A stretch of DNA of 64,000 nucleotides, from the NCBI GenBank assembly GCA_030704615.1, contig CM060731.1, forward strand, positions 31,930,001 to 31,994,000, read 5' to 3'. Shown here in pieces: positions 7,420 to 61,679 of this stretch. Both the position numbers and the translations under genes were made by a program. Each line of letters begins with the position of its first letter. Positions within the stretch are counted from its first letter, which is position 1. This DNA is from Takakia lepidozioides. Lineage: Eukaryota > Plantae > Bryophyta. The notes below the pieces were generated by a model. The model was not told the DNA's origin. It worked only from the letters and a program-made list of their open reading frames with translations, and searched no databases.

Positions 7420-8372
7420 CCAAGCTGACAATCCAGGTCAAGCAATTGAGATCCATTGCTTGCCCCAACACCTGACGACGTGATGCCTCAGAAAGGGAAG
7501 GCACCGCCGTGGTCCCAGTGGAAAACCCCATAGCCCGCTCTCGCTCGTCGGCATTAGGCTCCACTAACTGCTGCAACTGAGCATCCCACAGGAGGCCAGG
7601 TCCACCATCCCGAAAAGCATGGGATCCTGGGAAGCTGAGCAGTGTAGGTAATGCTGCTCGTGGTTGACCCACCCTGTTGACCACTGCCAAAGGCGAACGG
7701 TCATCGTGTCTCACACGTTGAGACTGCCTTCCTGTGTCCAAAATGCCATCCACGGTGAGGTGTGCTGGCCGCTGCACCCCATCAAATGCACGCTTGAGCA
7801 GTGCGGGTGGCATCAAGTTAGTCCACCATAGTCGTGGACGATGAGCCCGTGACCCCACTGCAGCTGCATCCAGCAATACTGCTGACCCAAGCCACGACCG
7901 GACTTGATGCACACTGGCCATCACCCTGGCCCGAGAATCACCCATCAGTGGCACATTCTCCAAGATGTATGCCGGAGATACAGCCTGATGAAGCTGCAAT
8001 GGCGCAAAATCCGCACCATCTCCCAAAACAGACCCGTCCTCGAGTCTCGCAATCCATTGCCATGCCCGGCTGATGAATGCCCTTGGCAGGGCCAACCTGC
8101 CACTACCAGATCAATGGAGCCAACCCGCTCCAAATCCTGCGCCCCCAGCAACGCAATGTCTGCTGGCAAGGCCTGCTGATATCCACGAACTGCAGACACC
8201 GGCAACAACTCAGGGTGCTGCTGCACCATCTGAGCAACATGGCGCAGTGAGACGCGTCGTGCAGTCTCATCCCTCTCCACATACAGGTAACGTCGAACTC
8301 GTACACCTGCCTGCAGCACTGCAGCCAATCCAGTGCTGATCCCGCCAAATAAGTCCAGAAGGCATATGCCTT
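7420..8372 (-). CDS. DNMT3-like C5 cytosine methyltransferase domain inside pol, between protease and RT
   Basis: Motif I LLDLFGGISTG, II YVERD, IV VAGWPCQG, V GLRDSRTGLF, VI YILENV, VIII AHRPRLWWTN, IX ERERAMGF, X RRQVLGQAM. Order and spacing match DNMT3 catalytic domains. One 1-bp frameshift near 8000. Confidence 0.92.
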
Positions 8373-11300
8373 CATCCGGTCGCTGCCACACAAGAGGTGT
8401 GGTGTCCAATGGCGACAACTGAGGTGGCCCTGGTACAATCACCGCACTCTCCTCCTCTCCTGACGGTACAAAAGCTTCTACCCAAGCTTGTTGCACCCGT
8501 CCATCAGCAGCGTGCTGCAAATCCTTGCTCGTACCCCACAACGGAGTGTGAGCAACCATGGCAGGCAACTCCGCCGTACCATGCATGTCATCCTGCTCTG
8601 CTGGAGGTGGCACATCCTCTGCATGGGCATTGCCTTCCAGCAACTCTCCAGGCCAGCTGACTGCAGCTGTGAAGGCGGCTAGTGTTGGCATCTTGCCCCG
8701 CTGAGCAGCTGCAATACCCCCAATGAATGTCACAGGGAGCTGTGCACGGCGACCATCCCCTGACTGCCATCCAGGCCTGTAGGATGCTGACTCCTCCCAG
8801 AAATCCAGGGTGAAGCCCATGGGGTATAACACTGCCCCACCAACGAGGACATCGTAAGAGACCGCGTCTGTCATAATGGCCTTGGCTCGCATCACTGAGC
8901 CATCTACAGGATGATCCGGCTGCAGTCTAATAGCCAACTGATGCCGTGTCATGCCGCGAGCCTGCTCTGATCCTCCCAGAGATGTCTGTATCTGGAAAGG
9001 ACAAGGCTCCATATCCGCCTCCATGAGGCCCAAACCTGCAATAGCAGCTCTGCCCAACATCAGTGGCTGAGCTCCTGAGTCCAACAAGACCCGCAGTGGC
9101 CGGTACTTCTTGCCTGCCGGGCCACTCAAAGTGAAAATGCCTCCCTGGTTGTCTAACAAGACAACTCCAGGTGTCACCATGGCGCGCTCAAAGGCTGGCC
9201 TAGCTGGCAGCTCCGTCAATCTGGCAGCTGCAGCTTGCCAGGGCGCTGCCGTGGCAGTCTTGACCCTCAAATCCGAGGATCCCTCTGCCACTACACCTTC
9301 CACTAACTCCGCAGAAGATGAAGTGACCTCTCCACTCTCGCAGAGTGTTGCTGCTAGTCTGAACACTGCAGCTGGTCTCACTCCCGGCGTCGCAATCATG
9401 GTCGCCGAGAACAGTGGGGCTTGACACACAGAGGTGGCTGCTCCCAATAACACACCGGCTGCACTAGCCTTGGTAGTAGGTGTCAGTGCTGCACGGGTAG
9501 CTCTCCCCAATGGCATAGTAACCTCCGCCTCGGTAACAGTCGGGCGAGAACTAGGTGCCATGGATGGCGTTGACACTGTCTCCGCCAAGGTGAATGACTG
9601 AGGCAGCCTTGCCTGACGGCTTGCCTCCCCACGTTGTGGATCCAACTCCACCTCTGCACCTCGTGGCTCAGGAACTCGTGTTGCTCCTCGAGTCACGGCT
9701 GCAGCAGACTCCACCTGCTCTAATGGTAGTGCTGCTCCGCACATGAATCCCATTCCGCCCATATCTCCTCCCTCAGGAGCAGGAGGTGGGCCATCCCGCC
9801 TGGGAGCCGGTACCGCCTGAGCTATTGCCATGGTAGCGAGCCTCTGCTCTAGCTGCTGAAGCCGATTGGCCATGCCTTGGTCAACACCCTGACCTCCGCG
9901 TCCTTGGCCATGTGGAGGTTGCCCTTGGCCTGCACCTCGTGCCCGACCACCTCGTCCTCTTTGGGCTGGTCCACCTCGCCCCCGGCCACCATTGTTCCCT
10001 TGGAACTGGCCTGGGCGCAACTCAGGATGCAAGTCATAACACTGGGCATCTCCATGCCCATACTTGCCACAATGCCCACACTGCAACTGTGCAGGCTGTG
10101 CTTGTGCCGGCCTTCTGCCACTCTCTGGGCAATCTCTCTTGACATGGGGTCCTCCACATGTCCAACATATCACCCCTGGTTGCTGTTGGCCTGCAAAAGA
10201 TGCCACGGGCCTCTGCACCTGAGGTCCCCTGTAAGCTCCATGGAACTTGGGCTGGGCAACCTTGCCCCCCTGACCACGCTGTTGGGCAGTCCCTTGTGCT
10301 TGTGGGCTGACAGCTGTGCCCCGTACAGGCATGTCCTTACCAAATCCAATTGTAACAACTCGCTCCTCCACCATGTTGAGCTCAATCCGCTCAGCCAGCA
10401 GAAACACATCTGCTAATGTGGGTTGGGCTGCTTGTAACAGGGTTGCATCTCGCACCCTTCTCTTGAGCTCCTTGTCCAGAATTCCATACCAAAACTGGAT
10501 TGCCTGAGCTTCAGTAACCCCTTGGGTCACACTTATCAAGCGCCTCATACGAGTGTACGCCTCTCGCAGGCTCTCACTGGGTTTGCGCTGGAAGTCTTGC
10601 AAACTTCGCAGCTTCTCTGTCCGTACACCTTGGTAGTTCCTCCGCAACTCCTGGAAGAACTCCACCACCGGGTTGAATCTTGGCAAATGTGTTGTAGTCG
10701 TGGCAGGAGAAGTAGTAGCACCTTTTGAACTGGTACCACCTTCAGAAGTACCAGCGCTACTTGCTCCACTACTAGTGCTGGCAGTGGAAGCTATTGGTAC
10801 TGATGCAGCTACTGGTCGCGTCGTGCCTCGAGTAATGGAGACGTAGTCAGGTGACCAATACATCCTCCACTCCTCAATCTCTGCTTCATGTCCTCGCCTG
10901 AACTCGTGGTAATCGTCCATAGGCGGGCCTTCCAAATGCTGGAACAGTCCCTTCCACGCCATGAATGGGGTGAATAGCTGTGGATTGCGCATCTGCTGCA
11001 AATCACACCAGCTGTCGAACTCCTGGATAAAGTCATCCAACTCGATTGTGCCCACAGCTCCAGAGTACCTACGAGGCCCCTTGGTAGCTCCATACATCAC
11101 CTCCATGTCGTCCCACAACAATGGCGAATGAAAGTGCACACCTGTTGATGAAGCCTCCGAGTCTGTGTCTGACGCTACAGTAGTTGAGGGTGGCGGTGAA
11201 GGTGGTCTGAACCGAATACCTCGTCTTGTGACCCCACTCTCACTGTCACTGCTTGTAGCCGTACTCCCCTCAAAACCCTTGGGTAACTCCGTAATGACAC

Positions 11301-11841
11301 TCACAATGTGCACCTCCTCCACGTGACACTATAAGGCTCTAGTACTAATCTAATAGTGACACGGGTGGGCACCTGTTGCAGTCTAAGGGTCATATCCCAA
11401 TGGCTCAGGGCACCTGCACCTGCATCCACCGCAAGAACTCCTATGGTTGGCTGGTCATCAACCCAGCCTCACCGTAGAAGAAACACTGGTGGTCTTGCTG
11501 GTCATCACTCCAGCCTCACCACCGACAGCATACTCTAGGATTGACCGGTGATCAAATCCGGCCTAATCCCTATGAAAGCAAGCGCCCACACAAAACCAAC
11601 ATGGCGCACAGTCAAGCATGCAGGTGTTGGGGGGGATCCAAACACAAGAAATCAAAACATCAACACCCCCACACCAAAATCCAGCAGCAACGCTGATCCT
11701 GCAGAATATCCCAGCCCAAAACCCCGGACTGGCTGGCCTCCACCAAGAGAGGCTTTGGCAACTACAAGTACAAGGTAATGAAAATAGTACAGAGATGGAG
11801 GGGAAGAATAGAAGCCCGCCCAAGCAAGATCTAATCCTGAT

Positions 11842-18010: not shown

Positions 18011-21000
18011 GTTCAGTCAAAAAAAGGAAGGGAATTGCAGGGAAGGATGCGAACGAGCATAAGTTTCTTACTCCAGCAAAGTGTGCACCAACTATTGCGC
18101 CAACTGCTGTGATGAGTGGTGCGGTTGTTCTAACTTACAAAAAACCAGCCCCGCCCACTCCACACACTGACGTTCAAGCTCCCTTGTATCCACCAGTATC
18201 GGCTCCTCCCTCGTATCCGCATATGTACCCGCAGTATCCTGCCATGTCAGGGTATAATCTGCATGGGCACATGCCATATCCTCACTATCAACCTCCAAAC
18301 AATGATCCTCAGTGCCAGAATTACAATTCTTTTGCTCCACCTGCAGGCGCTTCAATGCATGATCCTAGTCAAGGTGGGTATTCCATTTACCACCATTATG
18401 GAATGCATCCCCATAGTATGTATCATCCTCGGCCTATGTACAACCAACCTACTTCCTCCCTCTATCCTACCAGCCCTGCAAGACCACACCAGGGGCAGGT
18501 CCAGTATGGTGGCCACCAACCTTCAGGATCCAACTACAGTGGAGTACAACAGCCGGCACCTTCGAGCTTCACTGCACCGCGGCCACCTCTTTATCCAACA
18601 TCTCCAGGTACACCTAATACCCTGAAAGGGAAAGGCATTCTGAAACAGACCGAGGATGCATTTGCTCCGCATCATCCTGTGGGGTGGGAGACAGCAGTCC
18701 AGCCCCAACAGAGTGAAGGTGGTAACATGCAAGGTACTGCTGAAACCTTGCAGGATTCCAACCTTACTCCTGGGGGACATCAGGTGTGACTCCTATAGAA
18801 TGAAAAAATGCTTTAAGGAGGGAAAGAAGGGCACTTGCAAAAGATCTGAGAGACCAGGCTGCTCAAAATGTGGTTGTAGGGAGGAGGAAATTTTTCATTT
18901 CTTGTGATGAACTTGGAAACCCTGAAGGTCCTGCTCGGAACCAGTGGATGACAACTCTGCGAGGGCAGTGTCAACGTTTGTTGGACTGGTCATTGTATGC
19001 TCAGGATCAACCATTACACTTAATTGAAAAGATCATGGAGATCTTGGCTTCAGATTGGGAATACAGACCTCCTGGTCTTAACATAAAGGCTATTACAAAA
19101 ATAATTTGCGGGCAGCTCAAGTACCAACGAAATAAGCTGTTCAAAAATTACTATAGTGTGGGGCTGCCCAAACCCCATCATGTGCCAGACAAGACATGGG
19201 CACAACTAGTTGTTAGTTGGGGTTCCACTGATTTCAAGAAATTCCAGGCAAATGGTGTCAAGGCGCGGGGATGTGTGAAGAATACATCTCGATCGGGTCG
19301 CAGTGGAATCAGCGGTGTTGTAGCACGACTGGTATACTTCTCTTACAACATAGGAAGTTCCCACATTGTTTTGCATTGATAAACTTTATGTGTTGGGTTT
19401 TTTTGGCTAGAGCTCAGAGTCTATTCCTATATGGATGGAATTAGTACACATTGCTACTACTTGGGGGCCTTCTCATAGTTGGGCGCCAGCAAGAAACTAA
19501 GCACTCTTATTGAGGGGGAGTCATTGACGCTATCCTAGATAATTCTTTACTGTTGGCAGTGTGCTATGCTAGTCATTTACACTTGCAAGTTTGTTGCAAT
19601 CACAGGAGGAGACTGGACGTACACCAAGTTTGCAGGAGATCGCCGGTAGCGCCAAGAGTGACAAAGGCTACGGGTTGGGGTGTACAGGCAGTGCAGCCAC
19701 AACGGTATATAAACCAATTCTGGTGTGAATTACATATTCATGATTTCCATGCCATTGCTAGTTGCCGTTTGGTTCTCTTTTCTTACTAGTTCATCAGTTA
19801 GTGTAGTGAATTGTTACTTTGGAGGTGTTCTATGTGATGGGGTAGGGAATTGGTTCACTAGCAGCTCGCCTCAATGCTATGGAAAACAAACAAGTGCAGA
19901 TGGAAGCCAGCTCCAAGGCAGCTTCCAAGTCCAACTGGAGGCAGCAGCTGCATTCAACATTGTGCTAGCTAAACTTGGCATGAATGTGCCAGATTCACAG
20001 CCTACAGGTCCACCATGCACCACCTTTGCGCCACAGACAACAAATGAGATTATTTCTCATGTTATGGGCTCACCACTCAACCTGTTCAAGGCAGTTTCTT
20101 CACCGCCACCAAAGCCAAACACAATAGGCTCATTGTTTGGGCTTTCAGAAATGGAGGGGGATAATGACATGGAGGGTTGGTCTGAAGGTGAACTCAATCC
20201 ATCCCCCCATATTGTTGAGGCAACTGCAAAGTGTTCATCAGTCTTGTTGTCCCCTACACCAGTAGCACTGTCGGCATATGTACTACCCTCTCAATATGCC
20301 TGTGAGGTCTCCATGAATTTGCACAGTGCCCCACAGAAAGGTGTGTCTTTTGTACATGATAATCATGTACAAGTTGTAGGTAATTGCCCTTCGGCAACTG
20401 AGAGGCAGAAACACATCCTTATACTTGACTTGAATGGATTGTTATGTGAGAGCAGACTACGAACAAGGGAATACCTAGAGCCCACTGTCACCTCCAGACC
20501 TGGGTGTCAGGAGTTTCTGGACCGATGCCTTCAGATTTTTGATGTAGGTGTATGGTCTTCCATGTCATTGAGTAATGTCCTTCCAGTTGTGAAAGCTTTG
20601 TTTCGTGGGAAGCAACCAAAGATGGTGCTTCACCAAGACTATTGTCACCAGCCTGTGGGAATGGTGGACCCTTTCAATCCTTCTAAAACTGTCATGTACA
20701 AGAACTTATGTAAGTTCTGGAAGGACTACAGCCATTACAATCCAACCAATACTTTGCTGGTGGATGATTCCCCACTCACTTGCTTACCCAACCCTGCAAA
20801 TAATTGCATCTTCCCGTATCCATGGAAGTTGAGGGATCAGCCAAACTGCAAGAGGCTTATGAAAGAATTACTGCCTTGGTTAGAGGGTGTATCCAAGGCT
20901 GCACACATCCCTGAGTATGTGTCAGGGCACCCATACAGATATGGGCAGCCCAACTACTTGTTCAATACTGCAGCCATGGGTAGTGGATCACAACAATCTG

Positions 21001-21935
21001 CAAAGGCATCCGAACCAGGGCTTCATGCTGCCAGAGTTCCAACGACTTTGCCTCCCGATGCAACAACAAAGCATAATCAAAGAAAGGTGAGAGCAGAAGT
21101 TTCAATGCTTGGGCGCGTGGGTGGATTTGTATTGTTAATGCTACTTCACAATTTGTGTCATTCGTGCTATTCTCATTTTTTGATCGTTGTGGCATTCAAT
21201 ATACAGATGGTGAAACCAGTGAAGCGTTCAATGGGCAGGGAGAGTACAATATGTGCTATCAATCAGACTACAACCACAGTGGATCTAACTGAACCACAAG
21301 GTAACCAACAAAATCCGCACAGTGTAAGTACTTCCTTTGTGCAATTTTGTTTCCTTGTCTGATGTTGGATCAATACACCCCCTATGTATCGCCACATAGC
21401 TGCAAGCCCAACAACCTACAAAGGTAGTTTTGTGACATCGTCCTACCACATCCATGTTGACCATGCATAACCTGCTATCAACTAGGTATGGCACCGTTCC
21501 AGTTTTGATCATGTCAGCATGTAGTATAGAGACAGCAAATGCAATTCAGAATTGGAAGTATGCAATAGGTAGGGTTGGGGTGTTTGCTGGAAGAACTTCA
21601 ATGCCATTTTGCAGGAGTGCCAAGCTGTCAGTCTCTGTTCTCCAAGGTTCATTTCTGATATAGGAATCTGGTTTTTGTTGCAGTTTCAGATCGGCGACAA
21701 GGTGTTATTGTTTGATCCTTGTGCACCAAAAAGAAGGGCAGGTGTGGGATATATTGCTGGATTTCCGAAAGCAAATGTGCTAGACAACTATTACCGTATC
21801 CATGTGAAATCGGTCATGATTTCAGAGGTTGTGTTGCCGTACCCGGACTACTCTGTTACCCCTAATCATACCACATTGGGTGACACGCAAGGAAGTTCCA
21901 CCTTATGGTCTGAAAAGTTTCTTAAACACGCGTGA
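18011..21935 (+). CDS. Spliced CACTA TnpA-like gene: Pro/Tyr-rich region, Transposase_24-like domain, NIF/FCP1-like HAD domain, Transposase_23-like C-terminus
   Basis: PHHVPDKTWAQLVVSWGS..K..NGVKAR...SRSGRSG (18870..19379); ILILDLNGLL..RPGCQEFL..VGVWSS..KNL.KFW..NTLLVDDSP (20409-20830); YRIHVKSV..VVLPYP..TLGDTQGSSTLW (21685-21935). Exon boundaries are approximate. Confidence 0.7.
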
Positions 21936-22897
21936 TATTGAAGGTGCTACAAGTTTAGTTTAGTTTTCTTTATGGATTGAGGGTTGCTGAGACAGTTGAA
22001 CAAAACAGCTCTTTTCACATGAACAATATTTTTTGAATTGATGGTCTTGCTATTCTCATGTATGATGACAAGATCCCCTTGTTCAAGGGCAACTTCATTT
22101 TCCCACATCAAGCCAAATTTTTCTTGTGTAGACATGAATGTGGTATTTTGCTGGTTGTTTGCTATATTTAATATTAATAACATTACTACTGGTCAATGTG
22201 GTTAATAATACAATTATTATCCCTGTTTTAAATAAGCTTTTATTAAAATGAAACAAAACAAATAATAATTCTAAAATAATAATATATTACATATTAAATC
22301 AAGCAGCCAATGGCTTTTGGGGGTGCTATCCCATTTATAATAATAATAATAATAATAATATGACTATTCATTTTGGCATTTGTCAACAAATAATAATTGT
22401 TTACTTTTCGTCCAATAGGAACAAAATAATGGATATGACAGTATTCACACTAGTGTCATTGCGATCACACCACGACTTGAACCTGGTGTTAAATCTGTGT
22501 GAGAGAAGCCGTAAGAAGAGCCCTTAATATCTATTATTTATTTAATAATTCTGATGGACTCTATTACGTGGCATTCCCTTTGACATACATGTGGCAGACA
22601 TGGTGGCAATGAGGTGTAATAAGTACCGTAGAAAGACCATTAAGATTACTTAGTCAAAATAGTAGAACTAACCAGTCAAAACGGCCTTCAAAATATCCGT
22701 CAAAAGAGCCACCTAAACCTACTGCCACATCAGGTGCAAGTTTGGTGTGAGATGGTTTTTTTCACAGGACCAAGAAAGTTCACATGTGGTGCAAAGGACT
22801 AGGTTAACCTAACACCAAGGGGGGGTAGGAACATGGGCTCTTTTCACACCAAAATGTGTGAGAAGAGCCGTTAAAAAAACCGGTTTCTATATTAGTG

Positions 22898-24375
22898 ACA
22901 CCAACTTCCCACAACAATTTCAGCTCATCCACAAGGGGCTGCAGATAAACATCTGCATTGTCATTTCCCACAGATTGTGGTCCAAGAATCAATAAAGCCA
23001 ACATCGTGAAAAATGGCTTAGTACAGAGCCAGGGTGGAAGATTATAGTTCACCAACATGACAGGCCATGTTGACCATTTGTTTGATTTATCACTGTGAGG
23101 ATTGACACCATCCCATGCGAGACCCAATCGCAGATTTTTGGGGTCCGCTGCAAACTCAGGCCATTTTTGGTCAATGTGGGCCCAAGCCTTGTTGTCTGCT
23201 GGGTGCCTAACCAAGCCATCCTGACTTCGATTCTTAAAGTGCCATGACATTATCTCTGAGATGGACTTGGCTTTATACATTCGAAGCAGCCTTAAGATGA
23301 TAGGGAAATGTCGAAGGACCTTACGAGGTACTGGCGTCTTCGTACCCACCACATAACGACGTGCCTGACATTTTGGACAAACCTCCAAATTCTGAAGCTC
23401 CCTTCTGAACAACACACAGCCTTCCGGCCATGCATGTATACTCTCGTAATGAAGCCCGAGTTCCATTATGAGTTGTTTTGCCTCATAGTGGGACTTTGGC
23501 AGGCAATTGTCTGCTGGCAACAGTTGTCTTCCTAACAATGTAAGGAGTTCATCGACAAAGGTGTTTGACACACCATGGGTTTGACAAGCATTTAACAGCA
23601 GTAAGGTAGCAGACAATCGAGAGGAAGAACTCCCTACATATAAAGCCCTGGATACCTCGTGCTCAAAACGTAAGGCACTCGCTGCACCACGATCACCATC
23701 GCTTTGCAGTCCACCATCAGTTTGCTCTAGCACTCCATCTGTGTCCCATTGGCCCTGTGTTCCATCTCCCATTTCCTCATGTGCATCACCAGTTTGCACC
23801 CCATTATCTATAGTTGCGAATGTCTCCCGGAGCATTCTAAGCATGTCAAGATTACGATCCAAGGTATCAGGACCACCTGCAGGGCTGGTTTCCGTCCTAA
23901 ACCCCTCATGTTCGTCTCCAGAGTTTTCCTGCTTAGTACATATCAGATGCCACATGTCAGCCCACTATAAGATGGAGAGTTTTTTCATTTGCAATAATGG
24001 ATGTGGAACGTGCCATTTTACAGCCACGTGGCAATAGGAAAACGGACATGTACAATACTCTACACCTTACGACAATACCGCTACCAGGAATTTGAATTGT
24101 TTCTTATAATTTCAAAGTATGCATCTGCAAAGGGAAGAGAATCCAGAGAGATGCACCGGGAGTTCTCGTAAGTTAGGATCTCGCAAGTTCAGAAGCAGAT
24201 GACGCTTAGCCCGGCCAATGGTTTGCCAGTTCCCACCATGACAGGCATTGCATGGACATAGAATTTTCCGAAGACCCAGTCTTCTTGCTCGCGCTTCCTC
24301 TAGTTTCCACAATCTGTCATCGTCATGTTCTGCTTGTGTCCGCCTTTGCAATCGACAGGCAGTAGGAGGGATCAT
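22898..24375 (-). pseudogene. CACTA transposase (transposase-associated domain plus Transposase_21/TnpD-like), 3'-truncated at 22898
   Basis: ILCPCNAC..HL; CPKCQARRY, KVLRHFP, HPADNKAW, NLRLGLAWDGVNP, STWPVMLVNYNLPPW, DVYLQPLVDELKLLWEVGV. Confidence 0.92.
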
Positions 24376-26528
24376 CTTGGCGAGTGAGCGAGACTTGTCA
24401 GAAAATGGAGACCCAAATAGAGTGTCCAGAAGTTACACCAGGGCGCAAGCCTACAGCGAGGGAGGTAGAACGAGCAAAGCGTCAAGCGGAGAACAAGGCA
24501 TTCTTCGCGCGGCTCAAGATCTACGACATTGCAAAGAGGTCCGAACTTCCGTTTTTTTCATATCCCCTACCTAGCCCTAGCCATGAAACGGCATTAAAAG
24601 CTCCAAACCTGTAGAGAGGATATGTTAGGGTTTTGCAGCTGCTGACTTTGTCTTTCTTCTTCTTTGCAGCGTCGAAGAGAGCTTGAGTCACCCTAAACTA
24701 TTCTCATGTATGATGACAAGATCCCCTTGTTCAAGGGCAACTTCATTTTCCCACATCAAGCCAAATTTTCCTTGTGTAGACATGAATGTGGTATTTTGCT
24801 GGTTGTTTGCTATGTTTAATATTAATAACATTACTACTGGTCAATGTGGTTAATAATACAAATATTATCCCATGTTTTAAATAAGCTTTTATTTAAATGA
24901 AACAAAACAAATAAAAATTCTAAAATAATAATATATTAAATATTAAATCAAGCAACCAATGGCTTTCGGGGTGCTATCCCATTTATTATAAGAATATCTA
25001 TACAACAACAACAACAACAACAACAATAATAATAATATGACTATTCATTTTAGTATTTGTCAATAAATAATAATTGTTTACTTTTCGTCCAATAGGAACA
25101 GAACAGTGGATGTGACAGTATTCACACTAGTGTCATTGCGTTCACACCACGATTTGAACCTGGTGTTAAATCTGTGTGAGAGAAGCCGTAAGAAGAGCCC
25201 TTAATATCTATTATTTATTTAATAATTCTGATGGACTCTATTACGTGGCATTCCCTTTGACATACATGTGGCAAACATGGTGGCAACGAGGTGTAATAAG
25301 TACCGTAGAAAGACCATTAAGATTACTTAGTCAAAATACTAGTTGAACTGACCAGTCAAAACGGTCGTCAAAATATCCGTCAAAAGAGCCACCTAAACCT
25401 ACAACCACATCAAGTGCGAGTTTGGTGTGAGATGGTTTTTTTCACAGGTCCAAGAAAGTTCACATGTGGTGCAAAGGACTGGGTTAACCCCTAAGCGCCC
25501 ATTCGACCAGTTTTCGGCCGAATGTTTTGGTTTTTCGGCTCTATTTTTCTCGGATTTGAACCGATTAACCTGATTTTTGGAGGGTAGGATGCCAGCCACA
25601 TGGCAGTCAGGATTCCAATGCGCGATTAGGTTTTTTTTTTTTTTTTGGTTAGGGTTGCAATTTTTGGCTGCGCAAGAGGTGGGGTTTGCTTCTGCAGCGA
25701 TTTTTGCTTGCTCCCGCGTTTTGAGCGTCATCTCTCTCCTTCCCGCGCTTTGCCTTGTGCTGTGATCTCGTCTGTTGTGGCGTTCGCGCGTGTTCCATAC
25801 TTTGTTGCAAGTTGCCGTTGCAGATGCCTTGACAGGTTGCCGTTGGTGATCTGCTCCGATTTGCATCTTCCATTATCTCTTTCTCTTTCAGTCGAGGAAA
25901 CTTGGAAATTGTGGGCAAGTGCTAGAGACTGAGCCATAGCTGTGAGAGAGGATGGGCCGACATTGCATTGATACTCAGGGTGCGCATTCAAGGCAGTGTT
26001 CATTGTTTGATATACCTGAGCTAGACTGTGCGCAGTTAGGGCATCGTGTAGCTCATCCTTGTGTTTATCCTTGTGTGCATAGGCAAATTGGTGGAGTAAG
26101 GTTGAAGCTACATAGTATAAGATGGGTTCGGGTGTGTTGCCTTCCCCTGCACCTGCGCATTTGGAGACTCAAGCTGCATCGATTGCCAAGTGGGCACGCT
26201 CACTGGGCGCATCAACCGAGCAAGTCGAGCGGATTGTCGGGTGCCTGAATGAGGACTACCTCTTGTGTTTGAAGAGACCTGCTTGTGTGCATTGGCCTGG
26301 ATTTCCACAGCCCTCCAACTTTCGTTACTTGTTTAGGCGCCATTGCGCAGAGATTTTGGGTTGGGTAGATCGCAAGGAGGAAGGAGACCCCCTTGGGTTC
26401 AGCGCAGAGGTAAACGACATTTTGAGGCTCGAGGTTTGGTCTGACTTCCAGACGTCTTCTGCCAGCCACGATGAGGCTCAAATAGCTGGCCAGGGACAGA
26501 GAATCGTACTGAACCCTCTTTTGATTTC

Positions 26529-28581
26529 ATGAGTGAGGAGATGGGCAATTCGGCCTACTCCTTGCGCAACTCTCAAAATCCTATATGTGATCCTGCTGGT
26601 CACTCCCAAACTATGGAGGACATAGGGATTTTGGGATCCACAGTGAAGGTGGCAGTGGCTGAGCTACACCTTCAGGATGTGGCATCGTCTAGCAATGCCC
26701 ACGAATTTGGATATGGCACTGTGGTAGACAAGACATGGGACATCCTGAATGGTATAGAGAATTATATTGTCTCTTTTTTTGGTGTCCTTGGTGTTCATGT
26801 GGTATCGTCACAGTCCTGTGTTGTGTGTAATCTTGATGATTCAATGTTGTGCACTATCCCTGAGCTCTTGGGGTTGGATTCTGAAGCTGAATTGCCTGAG
26901 GGGGAAGTAGATGATAGTGAACCAGATTCTGATTGTGACTATAATCCAGAAGACGATGACCTTGTTGACATCGACAATCCTGACTTGATGGACTACTGTG
27001 TGGACACGGGGAATCCAACGCGTGAGGTGGGATTATTTGATTTGCCGCCCAATTGGGAGCAGTGGGGTCCTGCCGAGTTGTTTGGTGATGACATGTGGAA
27101 CTCCTCTTCTACTGAATTGCCAGACATTACATGGTTAGGTGGGGATTCGGGTCCTCGTTTGCCTTTTGGAGATTCAGCAAATCCAGTTGTCTTTTTCAAT
27201 TTGTGTTGGCCACAGTCGGTCATGCGCCGAATTTGCAGCATGACCAACTTGTATGCCAGGACAGAAAACCAGAATGGAAACCTGAAAGGAGGTAGATGGT
27301 GGTACCCTATCACCATCCGTGAATTGAAGGCTTAGCTTGCTGTTCACATGCTCATGGGAATCAAAAAATTGCCTAGTACTAGATTGTATTGGAAAGCCAA
27401 CAATGCCTTCTTCAATTGCCCTTCCATCATGCGCATTATGTCCCGCAACCGATGGGAGGCAATTCTGAGGTGCCTCCACCTTGTTGACAACAGGGATGTA
27501 TGCACTATTGACACTGACCCTGCTTTTGATAAGTTAGCTAAAACCAGGTGGTTGCTAGATGCACTAAATGGTTTGTATGCCACCTACATGAGCCCCGAGC
27601 AGAATTTGACTGTGGATGAGCAAATGGTGAAGTACAAGGGCAAATATGCCCGAATCCAGCAATACCTGAGCAAGAAGCCTGTGAAGTGGGGTCTGAAGGT
27701 GTGGTGTTTGTGTGGTGCATGTTCCAAATATGTTCAGAAGTTAGAGGTTTACCTTGGGAAGGATGATGGGAATGATATGACCCATGGCAGTGGATATGGC
27801 GTGGTGACAAGGTTACTAGAAGGATTTGAGGGTAAGGGCCATATTGTAACGATGGATAATTTTTTTAGTAGCCCCATCCTGTTCTATGATTTGGCAGCAA
27901 AACAGATCTATGCTACTGGCACGGTAAAAACCTCCTGAGTGGGCTTTCCTACATGCCTTGATTTGGGGAAGAAGGGTGAGAGAGGTAGGCTGGAATATCG
28001 TGTTCACATAAGTGGCAAAGTAGCCGCTATTGCCTGGATGGATGCCAAGTTGGTGACCATGATTTCCACTGCCATTTCCCCTGTCGGTCCTGATTGCTTC
28101 ATACAAAGATGGCACAAAGGGGCAATACGTGCTGTGCCTACCTCCCCTATTGTGGTTCATTACCAGCAGCATATGCGGGGAGTGGATATTTAGGATCAGC
28201 TACGGGGTTACTACTCTGGTCAGACCAGGGACCATAAATGGTGGCACCGCTTGTACTTTCATGGAGTTGACACTTCTTTGGTGAATGCTTACATATTGTA
28301 CCTGGGTTTTATGAGGGGAAAGGGCCGCATTCTTCTTAGCCACATGCTTTTCAATTTGGAGGTTGCAAAGGGACTAATTGTGGGGTGGGTTCCTCCCAGG
28401 AGAACAGTAATGCCAGGGGCAGATGTGCCCAACCCGGGGTCCGTGCATTTCTCCCTCAAGACTAGTAGGAGGAGGAAGTGTGTTCAGTGCGGTATGCGTC
28501 AAAGGTATTTTTGGTCACGTGTGTGGAGATGTCTATATGTGCCTTGGACGATGCTTTGTCAAGAGCCATAGCCTTATCTGA
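26529..28581 (+). pseudogene. piggyBac transposase (DDD) with C-terminal Cys-rich domain; 3 in-frame stops and one frameshift
   Basis: LTVDEQM..KKPVKWGLK, VTMDNFF, ATGTVK, MRGVDI*DQ, KWWHRL..NAYILY, CVQC...CGDVYMCLGRCF..H. Stops end at 27335, 27938 and 28193; frameshift near 28510. Confidence 0.92.
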
Positions 28582-29026
28582 TTATAGGTACTTCTATGTT
28601 CAGTAATTGATATGGTTGATTTCTTACTGCAGAGACGTGGAGACCTTTGATGCCAAAGAGGGGGTATCCTCCTTACGACACTTTTTCTATGTAGTGGTGT
28701 TCTGTCTTTTTCTAAACACAATGGTGTGTTTGGGGGTTGGTTTGTTGTTGGTAGCCATGAAACATTTGTACTGAGGATCCAGCCATAGAGAGTCGCTTGA
28801 CAGTCCAAGGAGAGGTATGATTTCGTGGTTGTGCAGTATTGGGGTTCACTGAGTCCTGATCTGAATGGTTTGTTTGCTACTCCAGCTTTTTGCCTTAGTG
28901 TTCATGTAGCTCCGAGGTCTTTGCTGCAACAACCCACTCACACAATTCGGCGTGTAAAGGTGGGTTCATCTCTGGTTTTTCTGAGTCTGATTTGATGCTA
29001 GTGCTGGCCACATGTTGGTCTTTCTT

Positions 29027-29403
29027 TGTGTGAGCTGCCAGTTGGGGCAGGCCACTGGGTTCAATTCCCACTCACGCAATGGAATTATCTGTGTTCAGGT
29101 TTGTATGTTGCCTCATTGTGTTGGAATTTTGCTGGCCTTCAAGCTTGTGTGGCTGCCTCATTGTCTCTAAACTTTCGGAGTGTGCAGATTGTGTGGAACT
29201 TGGCCAAAAACCTTCAGCATGGGCTGCCAGTTGGGGCAGCTCCATGGGTTCAAATCCCACCCATGCTTGGCCACTAAGGGTGGGAGATGAAGGTGAGGCT
29301 GTTTTGCATCTCTATATTTTGGGAGCTTGGGCTTGTGTGGAATTCGGCTTCAGCATGGGCTGCCAGCTGGGGCAGCTCTGTGGGTTCAAATCCCACCCAT
29401 GCT
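29027..29403 (+). ncRNA. Three 52-nt tRNA-like structures (29027-29078, 29216-29267, 29352-29403)
   Basis: 7-bp acceptor-like stem, CTGCC/GGCAG arm, and T-arm TGGG-TTCAA(A/T)T-CCCA. Compensatory changes between copies. Not canonical tRNAs. Confidence 0.6.
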
Positions 29404-30105
29404 CTCCCACTATGGATGGGAGATGAAGTACTTGGCTGCTGTGCTTGATTCTGGCCTTTGTCTTCATGTTGCTAGACTCCATTTTGTGTGCCTTAGGCTT
29501 GTGTCGAACTTGGGCAAAAGAATGAGAGCAGGTGGAAGCTGATGTGCACATGCCAGCTGTCTTTGTGCTTCAACAAAACTGCTGCTGCCTATGGCATTTT
29601 GACCCCCCTTACTTTGACTAGTTGTAAATCAGAAAATATGAATCCATTTTTTGCATTCTATGGCTCATCAGAATGCCAATGTGCTGGACAACACCTGTAA
29701 GCAGGATGAGGTCCTGCAGATTTCATCCCGTCATTGAAAATTGCAAATTCCTCCAATTTCCCTTATTGTTTTGGGAGGGGCCCAAAAAATGGGCCCCACA
29801 CTCAACGGTGGCGTTTCTCTGATTTTCGCCTGATTGGCCTGGAAATTTACAGGTGTCTGGAAAGGGTAGGTATGAGCATAATGCCTGGTCAATTTTCCCA
29901 AAAACTTTTTTTTCGCTGAGATATTCTTATTTTTCTGAGCTGGGGTCCATTTTTTTCAAAAAATCAACATTGGGCACTGGGCGCTTAAGGGTTAACCTAA
30001 CACCAAGGGGGGGGGGGGGGGGGGGTGTGGGGGTGTGAACTCGAGCTCTTTTCACACCAAAATGTATGAGAAGAGCCGTTAAAAAAACCGGTTTCTCTAG
30101 TAGTG

Positions 30106-61179: not shown

Positions 61180-61679
61180 NNNNNNNNNNNNNNNNNNNNN
61201 NNNNNNNNNNNNNNNNNNNNNNNNNNNNNNNNNNNNNNNNNNNNNNNNNNNNNNNNNNNNNNNNNNNNNNNNNNNNNNNNNNNNNNNNNNNNNNNNNNNN
61301 NNNNNNNNNNNNNNNNNNNNNNNNNNNNNNNNNNNNNNNNNNNNNNNNNNNNNNNNNNNNNNNNNNNNNNNNNNNNNNNNNNNNNNNNNNNNNNNNNNNN
61401 NNNNNNNNNNNNNNNNNNNNNNNNNNNNNNNNNNNNNNNNNNNNNNNNNNNNNNNNNNNNNNNNNNNNNNNNNNNNNNNNNNNNNNNNNNNNNNNNNNNN
61501 NNNNNNNNNNNNNNNNNNNNNNNNNNNNNNNNNNNNNNNNNNNNNNNNNNNNNNNNNNNNNNNNNNNNNNNNNNNNNNNNNNNNNNNNNNNNNNNNNNNN
61601 NNNNNNNNNNNNNNNNNNNNNNNNNNNNNNNNNNNNNNNNNNNNNNNNNNNNNNNNNNNNNNNNNNNNNNNNNNNNNNN
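61180..61679. other. Assembly gap (500 N)
   Basis: Run of N. Confidence 1.

Follow-up and report, generated by a model that had tools for sequence, protein, structure and literature searches.

A piggyBac DNA transposon carries, downstream of its transposase and on the sense strand, a tandem array of 52-nt tRNA-like units. Variation among family copies spares the stems of these units, which are likely structurally constrained tRNA look-alikes under selection for RNA structure. By analogy with the 3' end of MALAT1 and with plant mitochondrial t-elements, we assign a probability of roughly 0.5 to the reading that the units form a cleavage module, which would be cut by the PRORP and tRNase Z of the host. 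The features discussed below, all within the window (the whole 64-kb stretch of DNA that was analyzed), are the following.

25488..29991, plus strand: piggyBac DNA transposon, 4504 bp, with TTAA at 25484-25487 and 29992-29995
25488..25501, plus strand: left terminal inverted repeat, 14 bp
26529..28581, plus strand: transposase pseudogene, interrupted by three in-frame stops (27333, 27936, 28191) and by a frameshift near 28513
28659..28673, plus strand: G-run/C-run hairpin, likely what remains of the hairpin found immediately ahead of the unit in related loci
28933..28944, plus strand: remnant of a unit 0, unit positions 41-52, with loose contig ends on both sides of 28932/28933 (runs X1 and X2)
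29027..29078, plus strand: tRNA-like unit 1, 52 nt
29079..29215, plus strand: spacer 1, 137 nt, with homology to spacer 2 and to the sequence that follows unit 3
29216..29267, plus strand: tRNA-like unit 2, 52 nt, whose fold is predicted to lose out to the flanking sequence in this copy
29268..29351, plus strand: spacer 2, 84 nt
29352..29403, plus strand: tRNA-like unit 3, 52 nt, followed by a short trailer hairpin at ~29404-29422
29978..29991, minus strand: right terminal inverted repeat, 14 bp, with one mismatch to the left repeat

The window is a nest of transposable elements, with Ty3/Gypsy frames (pol and gag), a CACTA-like frame of the Transposase_21 type, and one piggyBac, and from this content we read it as nuclear DNA. 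Among the 120 matches listed for one Gypsy polyprotein, identity reaches 57%, the best named near-full-length match is from Riccia sorocarpa (53%), and the top-scoring ones are from Closterium (45%); a non-seed streptophyte plant is accordingly the likely host. One of the DNA runs with matches to the window is labeled as a plant metagenome. Directly upstream of the Ty3/Gypsy pol, a 1125-aa frame (7945-11322, minus strand) has at its end a partial C-5 cytosine methyltransferase domain (PF00145, E 2e-9), possibly marking a retroelement with its own methylase, and a 545-aa frame with a NIF phosphatase domain (19725-21362, plus strand; PF03031, E 4e-17) adjoins the CACTA-like Transposase_21 region and may be cargo of that element. 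A 500-base break in the self-alignment at 61180-61679 suggests an assembly gap.

The piggyBac element is delimited by inverted arms (25482-25501 and 29978-29997) that consist of TTAA and the 14-bp terminal repeats, the target duplication and short terminal inverted repeats characteristic of the superfamily. A single TTAA at 22804-22807, within a paralogous repeat (~22050-22900), represents the empty insertion site. The element sits in the end of a high-copy repeat (22050-22900, 24698-25489, and 29996-30105), and both of its flanks are joined directly in one X5 contig. Together with a transposase domain match to PF13843 (DDE_Tnp_1_7, E 1e-49), on which ESM Atlas agrees, the ends, the TTAA, and the empty site bear out the initial annotation, which had placed the units downstream of a piggyBac transposase.

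Candidate catalytic Asp motifs, which we take to be the catalytic triad of the piggyBac transposase, lie at 27609, 27849, and 28179, and the Cys-rich tail is split over two frames by the frameshift, at position 28513 of which X1 contigs of depth 775/1035 have one letter fewer. With its three in-frame stops and frameshift the copy has no intact transposase frame of the kind an autonomous element would have, and it is therefore dead. Protein searches turned up no close relative, the highest identity being 54% among the best 150 of 13111 matches and 46% among 7 longer ones. In the long 5' region ahead of the transposase (25889-26014), a pyrimidine tract runs up to an AG near 25890, and there are candidate splice donors. 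All 30 bins are covered by contigs of run X1, the long family contigs having a depth of ~700-840 and being 97-99% alike and lone diverged contigs a depth of ~37-49; as contig depth is not copy number, we read the family only as young and multicopy, with diverged relatives. One X5 contig is an internally deleted, nonautonomous derivative from which 25977-28550, nearly all of the transposase, is gone, and it still extends into unit 1.

The initial annotation described three units of exactly 52 nt separated by spacers of 137 and 84 nt, all of which holds at the coordinates given above. Units 1 and 2 are identical at 40 of 52 positions, units 1 and 3 at 39 of 52, and units 2 and 3 at 49 of 52. The fold predicted for each has a closing stem of 8 bp, an arm of 5 bp capped by a 6-nt loop, a linker of 5 nt, and a T stem of 4 bp. 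The 7-nt T loop, TTCAA(A/T)T as first described, is TTCAATT in unit 1 and TTCAAAT in units 2 and 3. The three-way form with a T arm stands, and the register originally proposed, with stems of 7, 6, and 5 bp, gives way to one of 8, 5, and 4 bp, which pairs 51 of 51 cells against 51 of 54; either register results in a 12-bp acceptor-plus-T helix. When folded alone each unit is a three-way junction, and equally good folds were obtained from 16, 4, and 3 of 200 shuffles for units 1, 2, and 3, respectively.

Compensated changes in the closing stem were also upheld, with three pairs altered on both sides, one altered on one side (C-G to U-G), and pairing kept. This level of covariation was reached by 20 of 500 column shuffles, in what is a weak test with three rows, and the change at pair 1:52 may reflect a one-letter slip instead of two substitutions (there is an insertion row at 29216). 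Of the 12 differences between units 1 and 2, seven fall in the closing stem with pairing kept in all, four in the linker, one in the T loop, and none in the inner stems; an 8-bp stem stays fully paired after seven random substitutions in 2940 of 400000 trials. A chance repeat as the origin of the units was rejected.

The loop of the middle arm reads AGYUGG at unit positions 14-19, which we take to correspond by numbering to the D-loop positions of tRNA. GG at 18-19 and C36 in the T loop are present in all three units, and the D-like arm is predicted to contact the T loop through this GG, forming an elbow. Modeling in native context gives a less stable picture. At 37 C with flanks included, the mean acceptor pairing probability ranges, depending on flank length, from 0.18 to 1.0 for unit 1 and from 0.02 to 0.83 for unit 3; for unit 2 it is 0.0 with at least 30 nt on each side. 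The 451-nt minimum-energy fold keeps unit 1 alone whole. By these predictions the unit fold is not robust in its native context, and unit 2 would misfold.

For units 2 and 3, folding of the reverse strand is about as good as that of the forward strand, as might be expected if the units were DNA hairpins or transposase-binding subterminal repeats, and 11 nt close to the left end (25552-25562, minus strand) match the T arm. No unit is found at the left end, however, and the units lie ~590-960 bp from the right end; only plus-strand RNA is compatible with the U-G pair of unit 1 and with the T-loop consensus. A role as DNA repeats is accordingly highly improbable. The 11-mer, which is T-arm/B-box-like and sits ~65 bp inside the left end, is probably there by chance, as are weak T-loop-like motifs near 25163 and 22486 (minus strand), in the two copies of the flanking repeat.

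To which class of tRNA-like sequence the units belong can be asked of several families. Identity as tRNA genes was rejected, the three-way fold having no anticodon arm and the best Rfam match being tRNA-Sec at 28 bits against a threshold of 47; ARAGORN called no tRNA gene in the window. The initial annotation called the units mascRNA-like, which is apt as an analogy and fails as membership: unit 3 scores 21.7 bits on RF01684, whose gathering score is 42.5, and units 1 and 2 have no RF01684 match at E up to 10. An acceptor stem predicted to stack on the T arm, two G in the D loop, and a C in the T loop are shared with mascRNA and menRNA. The anticodon-equivalent stem-loop, nt 19-33 in the account of mascRNA in PMC11693755, is missing, with a 5-nt linker only. 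The 8 Rfam matches at E up to 10 include no triple-helix family, and in related loci a GC hairpin lies upstream of the unit. From plant t-elements the units share the GGTTCRANYCC T-arm motif within a tRNA-like fold (3 of 3 units), and not the organellar location, given that the transposable element content of the window reads as nuclear.

A dispersed tRNA-derived SINE, raised in the initial annotation as an outcome that would undo its proposal, fits poorly. The B-box is perfect, but the A-box lacks its 5' half, and there are 19 nt from A14 to the B-box G, compared with 39 nt in a 76-nt tRNA by standard numbering, the A-box consensus likewise being the standard one. SINEs share a 3' body and tail and vary in their 5' flank; the reverse is seen here, as described below. 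Within the 64-kb window, no further units or dispersed copies occur outside the piggyBac.

The same boxes bear on whether the units act at the DNA level, as TFIIIC-binding B-boxes that would make them small Pol III genes (like TMERs or the Cassandra 5S domain) or a chromatin barrier. Each unit has the perfect GGTTCRANYCC box and an AGYTGG A-box half, T runs of at least 4 occur in each spacer, a short version of the family has a T run right after unit 1, and a 5S promoter sequence is described in Cassandra elements (PMC10946416). T runs are common in this T-rich region, though, and the missing A-box half and shortened box spacing count against a promoter. Moreover, compensated acceptor pairs are needless for a DNA signal, and contigs that are probably RNA reach hundreds of nucleotides upstream. 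We consider action as a DNA signal quite improbable.

Evidence of how the array arose comes from comparison with other copies. That other copies might lack the units, a second outcome the initial annotation held against itself, is not the case; contigs of other copies carry them, with two to four units each. The two spacers and the stretch after unit 3 are mutually homologous, with alignment scores reached by 0 of 500 shuffles in each comparison, and the array therefore grew by tandem duplication. The "array of three" of the initial annotation is right for whole units and incomplete with respect to unit 0, of which a remnant survives. Here ~178 nt upstream of the remnant are missing, the extra DNA of other copies at 28932/28933 ends in the rest of unit 0, and an X5 contig bridges the junction (record positions 124 to 303), so that a deletion has removed a fourth unit from this copy. 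In the short version of the family, unit 1 is joined to 29595 (joint 29075 to 29595; X1 depth 551), the shorter side of this joint being 27 letters only, and other unit orders are visible in further contigs.

A history of duplication and loss is also what would be seen if the piggyBac had captured a host tRNA-like module or a tRNA or SINE fragment that was then duplicated and has no present use, the paired changes having been inherited from the source. The homology of the spacers, the variable unit number, and the loss of most of unit 0 here agree with this, as do T-loop residues that are broken in some copies, and the piggyBac-type element Pokey is described as carrying captured rDNA spacer pieces (PMC10946416). 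A scan of metagenome contigs with the unit pattern returned 6 loci, none of which matches a piggyBac protein or aligns to the window by blastn; three overlap ARAGORN tRNA calls, and the other three resemble tRNA remnants by eye. The core of the unit thus also resembles the anticodon arm plus T arm of real tRNAs, although at 22-26 bits on model R1 (none of the loci above 26) compared with 77-82 for the training units. One of the contigs (L006, 4636-7559) has a cluster of four tRNA genes, including one with a 6-nt anticodon loop that ARAGORN left unassigned. Against a captured and idle module, no tRNA gene or further unit was found in the window, the A-box half is missing, and copies with foreign flanks have the 5' flank in common and differ in their 3' flanks. 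In addition, identity between units 2 and 3 is 49/52, compared with ~70% for their aligned flanks (79.8% over a 129-nt block), and variants avoid the stems. Capture followed by idleness is in our view unlikely.

The avoidance of stems is seen in a table of variants that covers 40 of 51 rows, corresponding to 39 distinct places; contigs less than 80% alike were excluded, differences in short pieces were not placed, and some rows may be other units aligned to these coordinates. Units 2 and 3 contain 12 of these places, and unit 1 contains none of them. Eleven of the 12 are unpaired (hypergeometric P 2e-5), the sole paired site being in the terminal pair, and in the core only, 11 of 11 are unpaired (P 2e-4). 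A single decayed X5 contig accounts, in whole or in part, for five of the 12, and in it the equivalents of T54 and C56 are broken; one X1 contig has a T-loop letter missing. G18 is not among the listed variants, and G19 to A in one lineage is the sole listed change of the GG. Loose ends of X6 contigs at 29355-29402 imply a further version of the closing stem, with U-A at pair 1:52, U-G at 3:50, and A-U at 4:49. At 3:50 the short version implies U-A, and units 2 and 3 have C-G, which, judging from the table rows, suggests that this pair may have evolved stepwise via the wobble pair.

Contigs of X1, X5, X6, and X7 include some in which the match is restricted to 29027-29080 or 29355-29402 and other flanks follow. 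In these sequences the unit is an island of conservation. In the flanks compared (up to 30 letters each, 20 of 39 rows), the 5' side mostly shares a G-run/C-run hairpin and a few nucleotides and the 3' sides differ, an arrangement that fits a 3'-end module and is opposite to that at the head of a SINE. The 12-nt hairpin motif, with up to one substitution and both strands considered, has a single match in the window, at 28661, ~80 nt after the transposase stop; the number expected is ~0.001 from the stop to unit 1 and 0.28 over all of the window, for a motif picked after the likeness had been noticed.

Runs X1 and X5 are DNA, and we guess that X6 and X7 are RNA, as which no record labels them. 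X6 covers 6 of 30 bins and X7 covers 11 of 30. The X6 contigs also include transposase pieces that are ~80% alike, and hence diverged, and right-end pieces, with nothing on the high-copy repeat at 25300-25627, which argues that X6 is not genomic DNA. We infer from these contigs that the foreign-flank loci are transcribed relatives of the piggyBac, although they may instead represent a host module that the element has captured. A depth-13 X6 contig joining a transposase tail to a unit was compatible with the depths but left 0.9 of 16.8 unexplained in one bin and was not counted.

If X6 and X7 are RNA, uncut molecules exist, because in both runs some contigs read through a unit and extend far to either side of it, and an X7 contig crosses unit 2 with window-like flanks. 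Such contigs would be accounted for, as would the same covariation, if the units were selected tRNA mimics left uncut in the transposase mRNA, where they might serve cell-to-cell mobility, stability, or as a protein-binding decoy. There is precedent for mobility in that tRNA-like structures fused to plant mRNAs can confer it, according to a review (PMC10082932). It would then need its own explanation, however, how units that keep the PRORP determinants and the 12-bp ruler escape cleavage, and a hairpin immediately ahead of the unit would meet the needs of an end made by cutting. We regard uncut mimicry as rather unlikely.

What is described of plant RNase P bears more directly on the cleavage-module reading. 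Arabidopsis PRORP1 cuts tRNA without an anticodon arm and not a bare minihelix; it requires G18, C56, and a purine at position 57, whereas a change of G19 to A is tolerated and a 3' CCA impedes the enzyme (PMC3562450). PRORP is also described as gauging the acceptor and T stems jointly (PMC4919922), and so 8 + 4 bp should be equivalent to 7 + 5 bp. At the level of sequence features, all three units have the equivalents of G18, C56, and R57, a 12-bp acceptor-plus-T helix, and no encoded CCA. In mascRNA, a D arm without linkers and with two G still forms the elbow (PMC11693755), and in plant mitochondria, tRNA-like folds known as t-elements end mRNAs (PMC1920247). On the PRORP determinants, the mascRNA elbow, and the t-element precedent, we therefore prefer a cleavage module.

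In such a module, host RNase P (PRORP) and tRNase Z would cleave the units at their 5' and 3' ends, and when transcription reads through, the upstream RNA would have its 3' end fixed by the first unit. In related loci that RNA would end in the GC hairpin and a few nucleotides, as the triple helix and mascRNA have it for MALAT1. Further units may provide redundancy, with the spacers released as by-products. The likely benefit to the element, which is speculation, would be a defined end that needs no polyadenylation and restricts read-through in the direction of the terminal repeat. A more elaborate version, which we hold to be doubtful, is that a polycistronic tRNA-spacer cassette evolved in a clade of plant DNA transposons, in which cuts by host PRORP and tRNase Z at each 52-nt mimic would leave the transposase mRNA with a poly(A)-independent 3' end protected by a hairpin and would yield defined spacer RNAs acting for the element, for example, against silencing. 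A blastn search for a spacer target in the window gave one 14-nt match at chance level and none beyond it.

Processing signals of tRNA-like form are known from two vertebrate long noncoding RNAs and from plant mitochondria. Were the units cleaved, they would represent a new way for a nuclear DNA transposon to control its own RNA and a natural non-tRNA substrate for plant nuclear PRORP, of which few are given in the account of one review (PMC4919922). As a 52-nt natural substrate, the unit can be tested in vitro and, if cut, could serve in plants as a compact linker within arrays of multiplexed guide RNAs. In a literature search that covered mostly titles and the beginnings of abstracts, we found no report of tRNA-like arrays in a DNA transposon, and titles and beginnings of abstracts on piggyBac in non-seed plants yielded no paper describing such elements. 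The unit pattern had no match in viral contigs or prokaryote genomes, a search led by the transposase locus found no relative in either, and no second species with units emerged from these and the metagenome contigs.

Comparison with known systems places the array near several of them. In herpesvirus TMERs and engineered polycistronic tRNA-guide RNA arrays, tRNA-like units alternate with RNA that is released by tRNA enzymes; the piggyBac array differs in having no intact A-box and spacers that are degenerate duplicates. Cassandra TRIMs, with their 5S domain, and Pokey, with its rDNA spacer pieces, are likewise transposons with sequence from housekeeping-RNA loci, but Cassandra has a Pol III promoter in a retroelement and Pokey has spacer DNA, and as far as the account in PMC10946416 goes, no tRNA-like processing signal is described for either. 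The anticodon-deleted tRNA-Cys substrate of PRORP1, as presented in PMC3562450, shares with the units the missing anticodon arm, G18, C56, a purine at 57, and the absence of an encoded CCA, whereas the units have a 5-bp D-like stem without the two linker residues and are natural rather than engineered. The enzymes relevant to the units would be the nuclear PRORP2 and PRORP3.

The closest parallels are with mascRNA and menRNA, at the 3' ends of MALAT1 and MEN-beta (RF01684), and with t-elements. As in the account of the former in PMC11693755, the units are short tRNA mimics with a 12-bp acceptor-plus-T stack (predicted here), a linker-less D-like arm with two conserved loop G, and a canonical T loop, and they directly follow a stable upstream structure, here in related loci. 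They differ in their 52-nt length, the lack of an anticodon-equivalent stem, the 8 + 4 register, and a tandem arrangement of two to four, as well as in having a plain GC hairpin instead of a triple helix and in residing in a plant DNA transposon. With plant mitochondrial t-elements, as described in PMC1920247, they share the GGTTCRANYCC T arm and a noncanonical tRNA-like fold behind a coding region and, by analogy, would be cut by the same enzyme classes; unlike t-elements, they are nuclear, carried in a transposon, arrayed, and of fixed length. At the roughly even odds that we give to cleavage, the units would work as mascRNA and t-elements do while being members of neither family.
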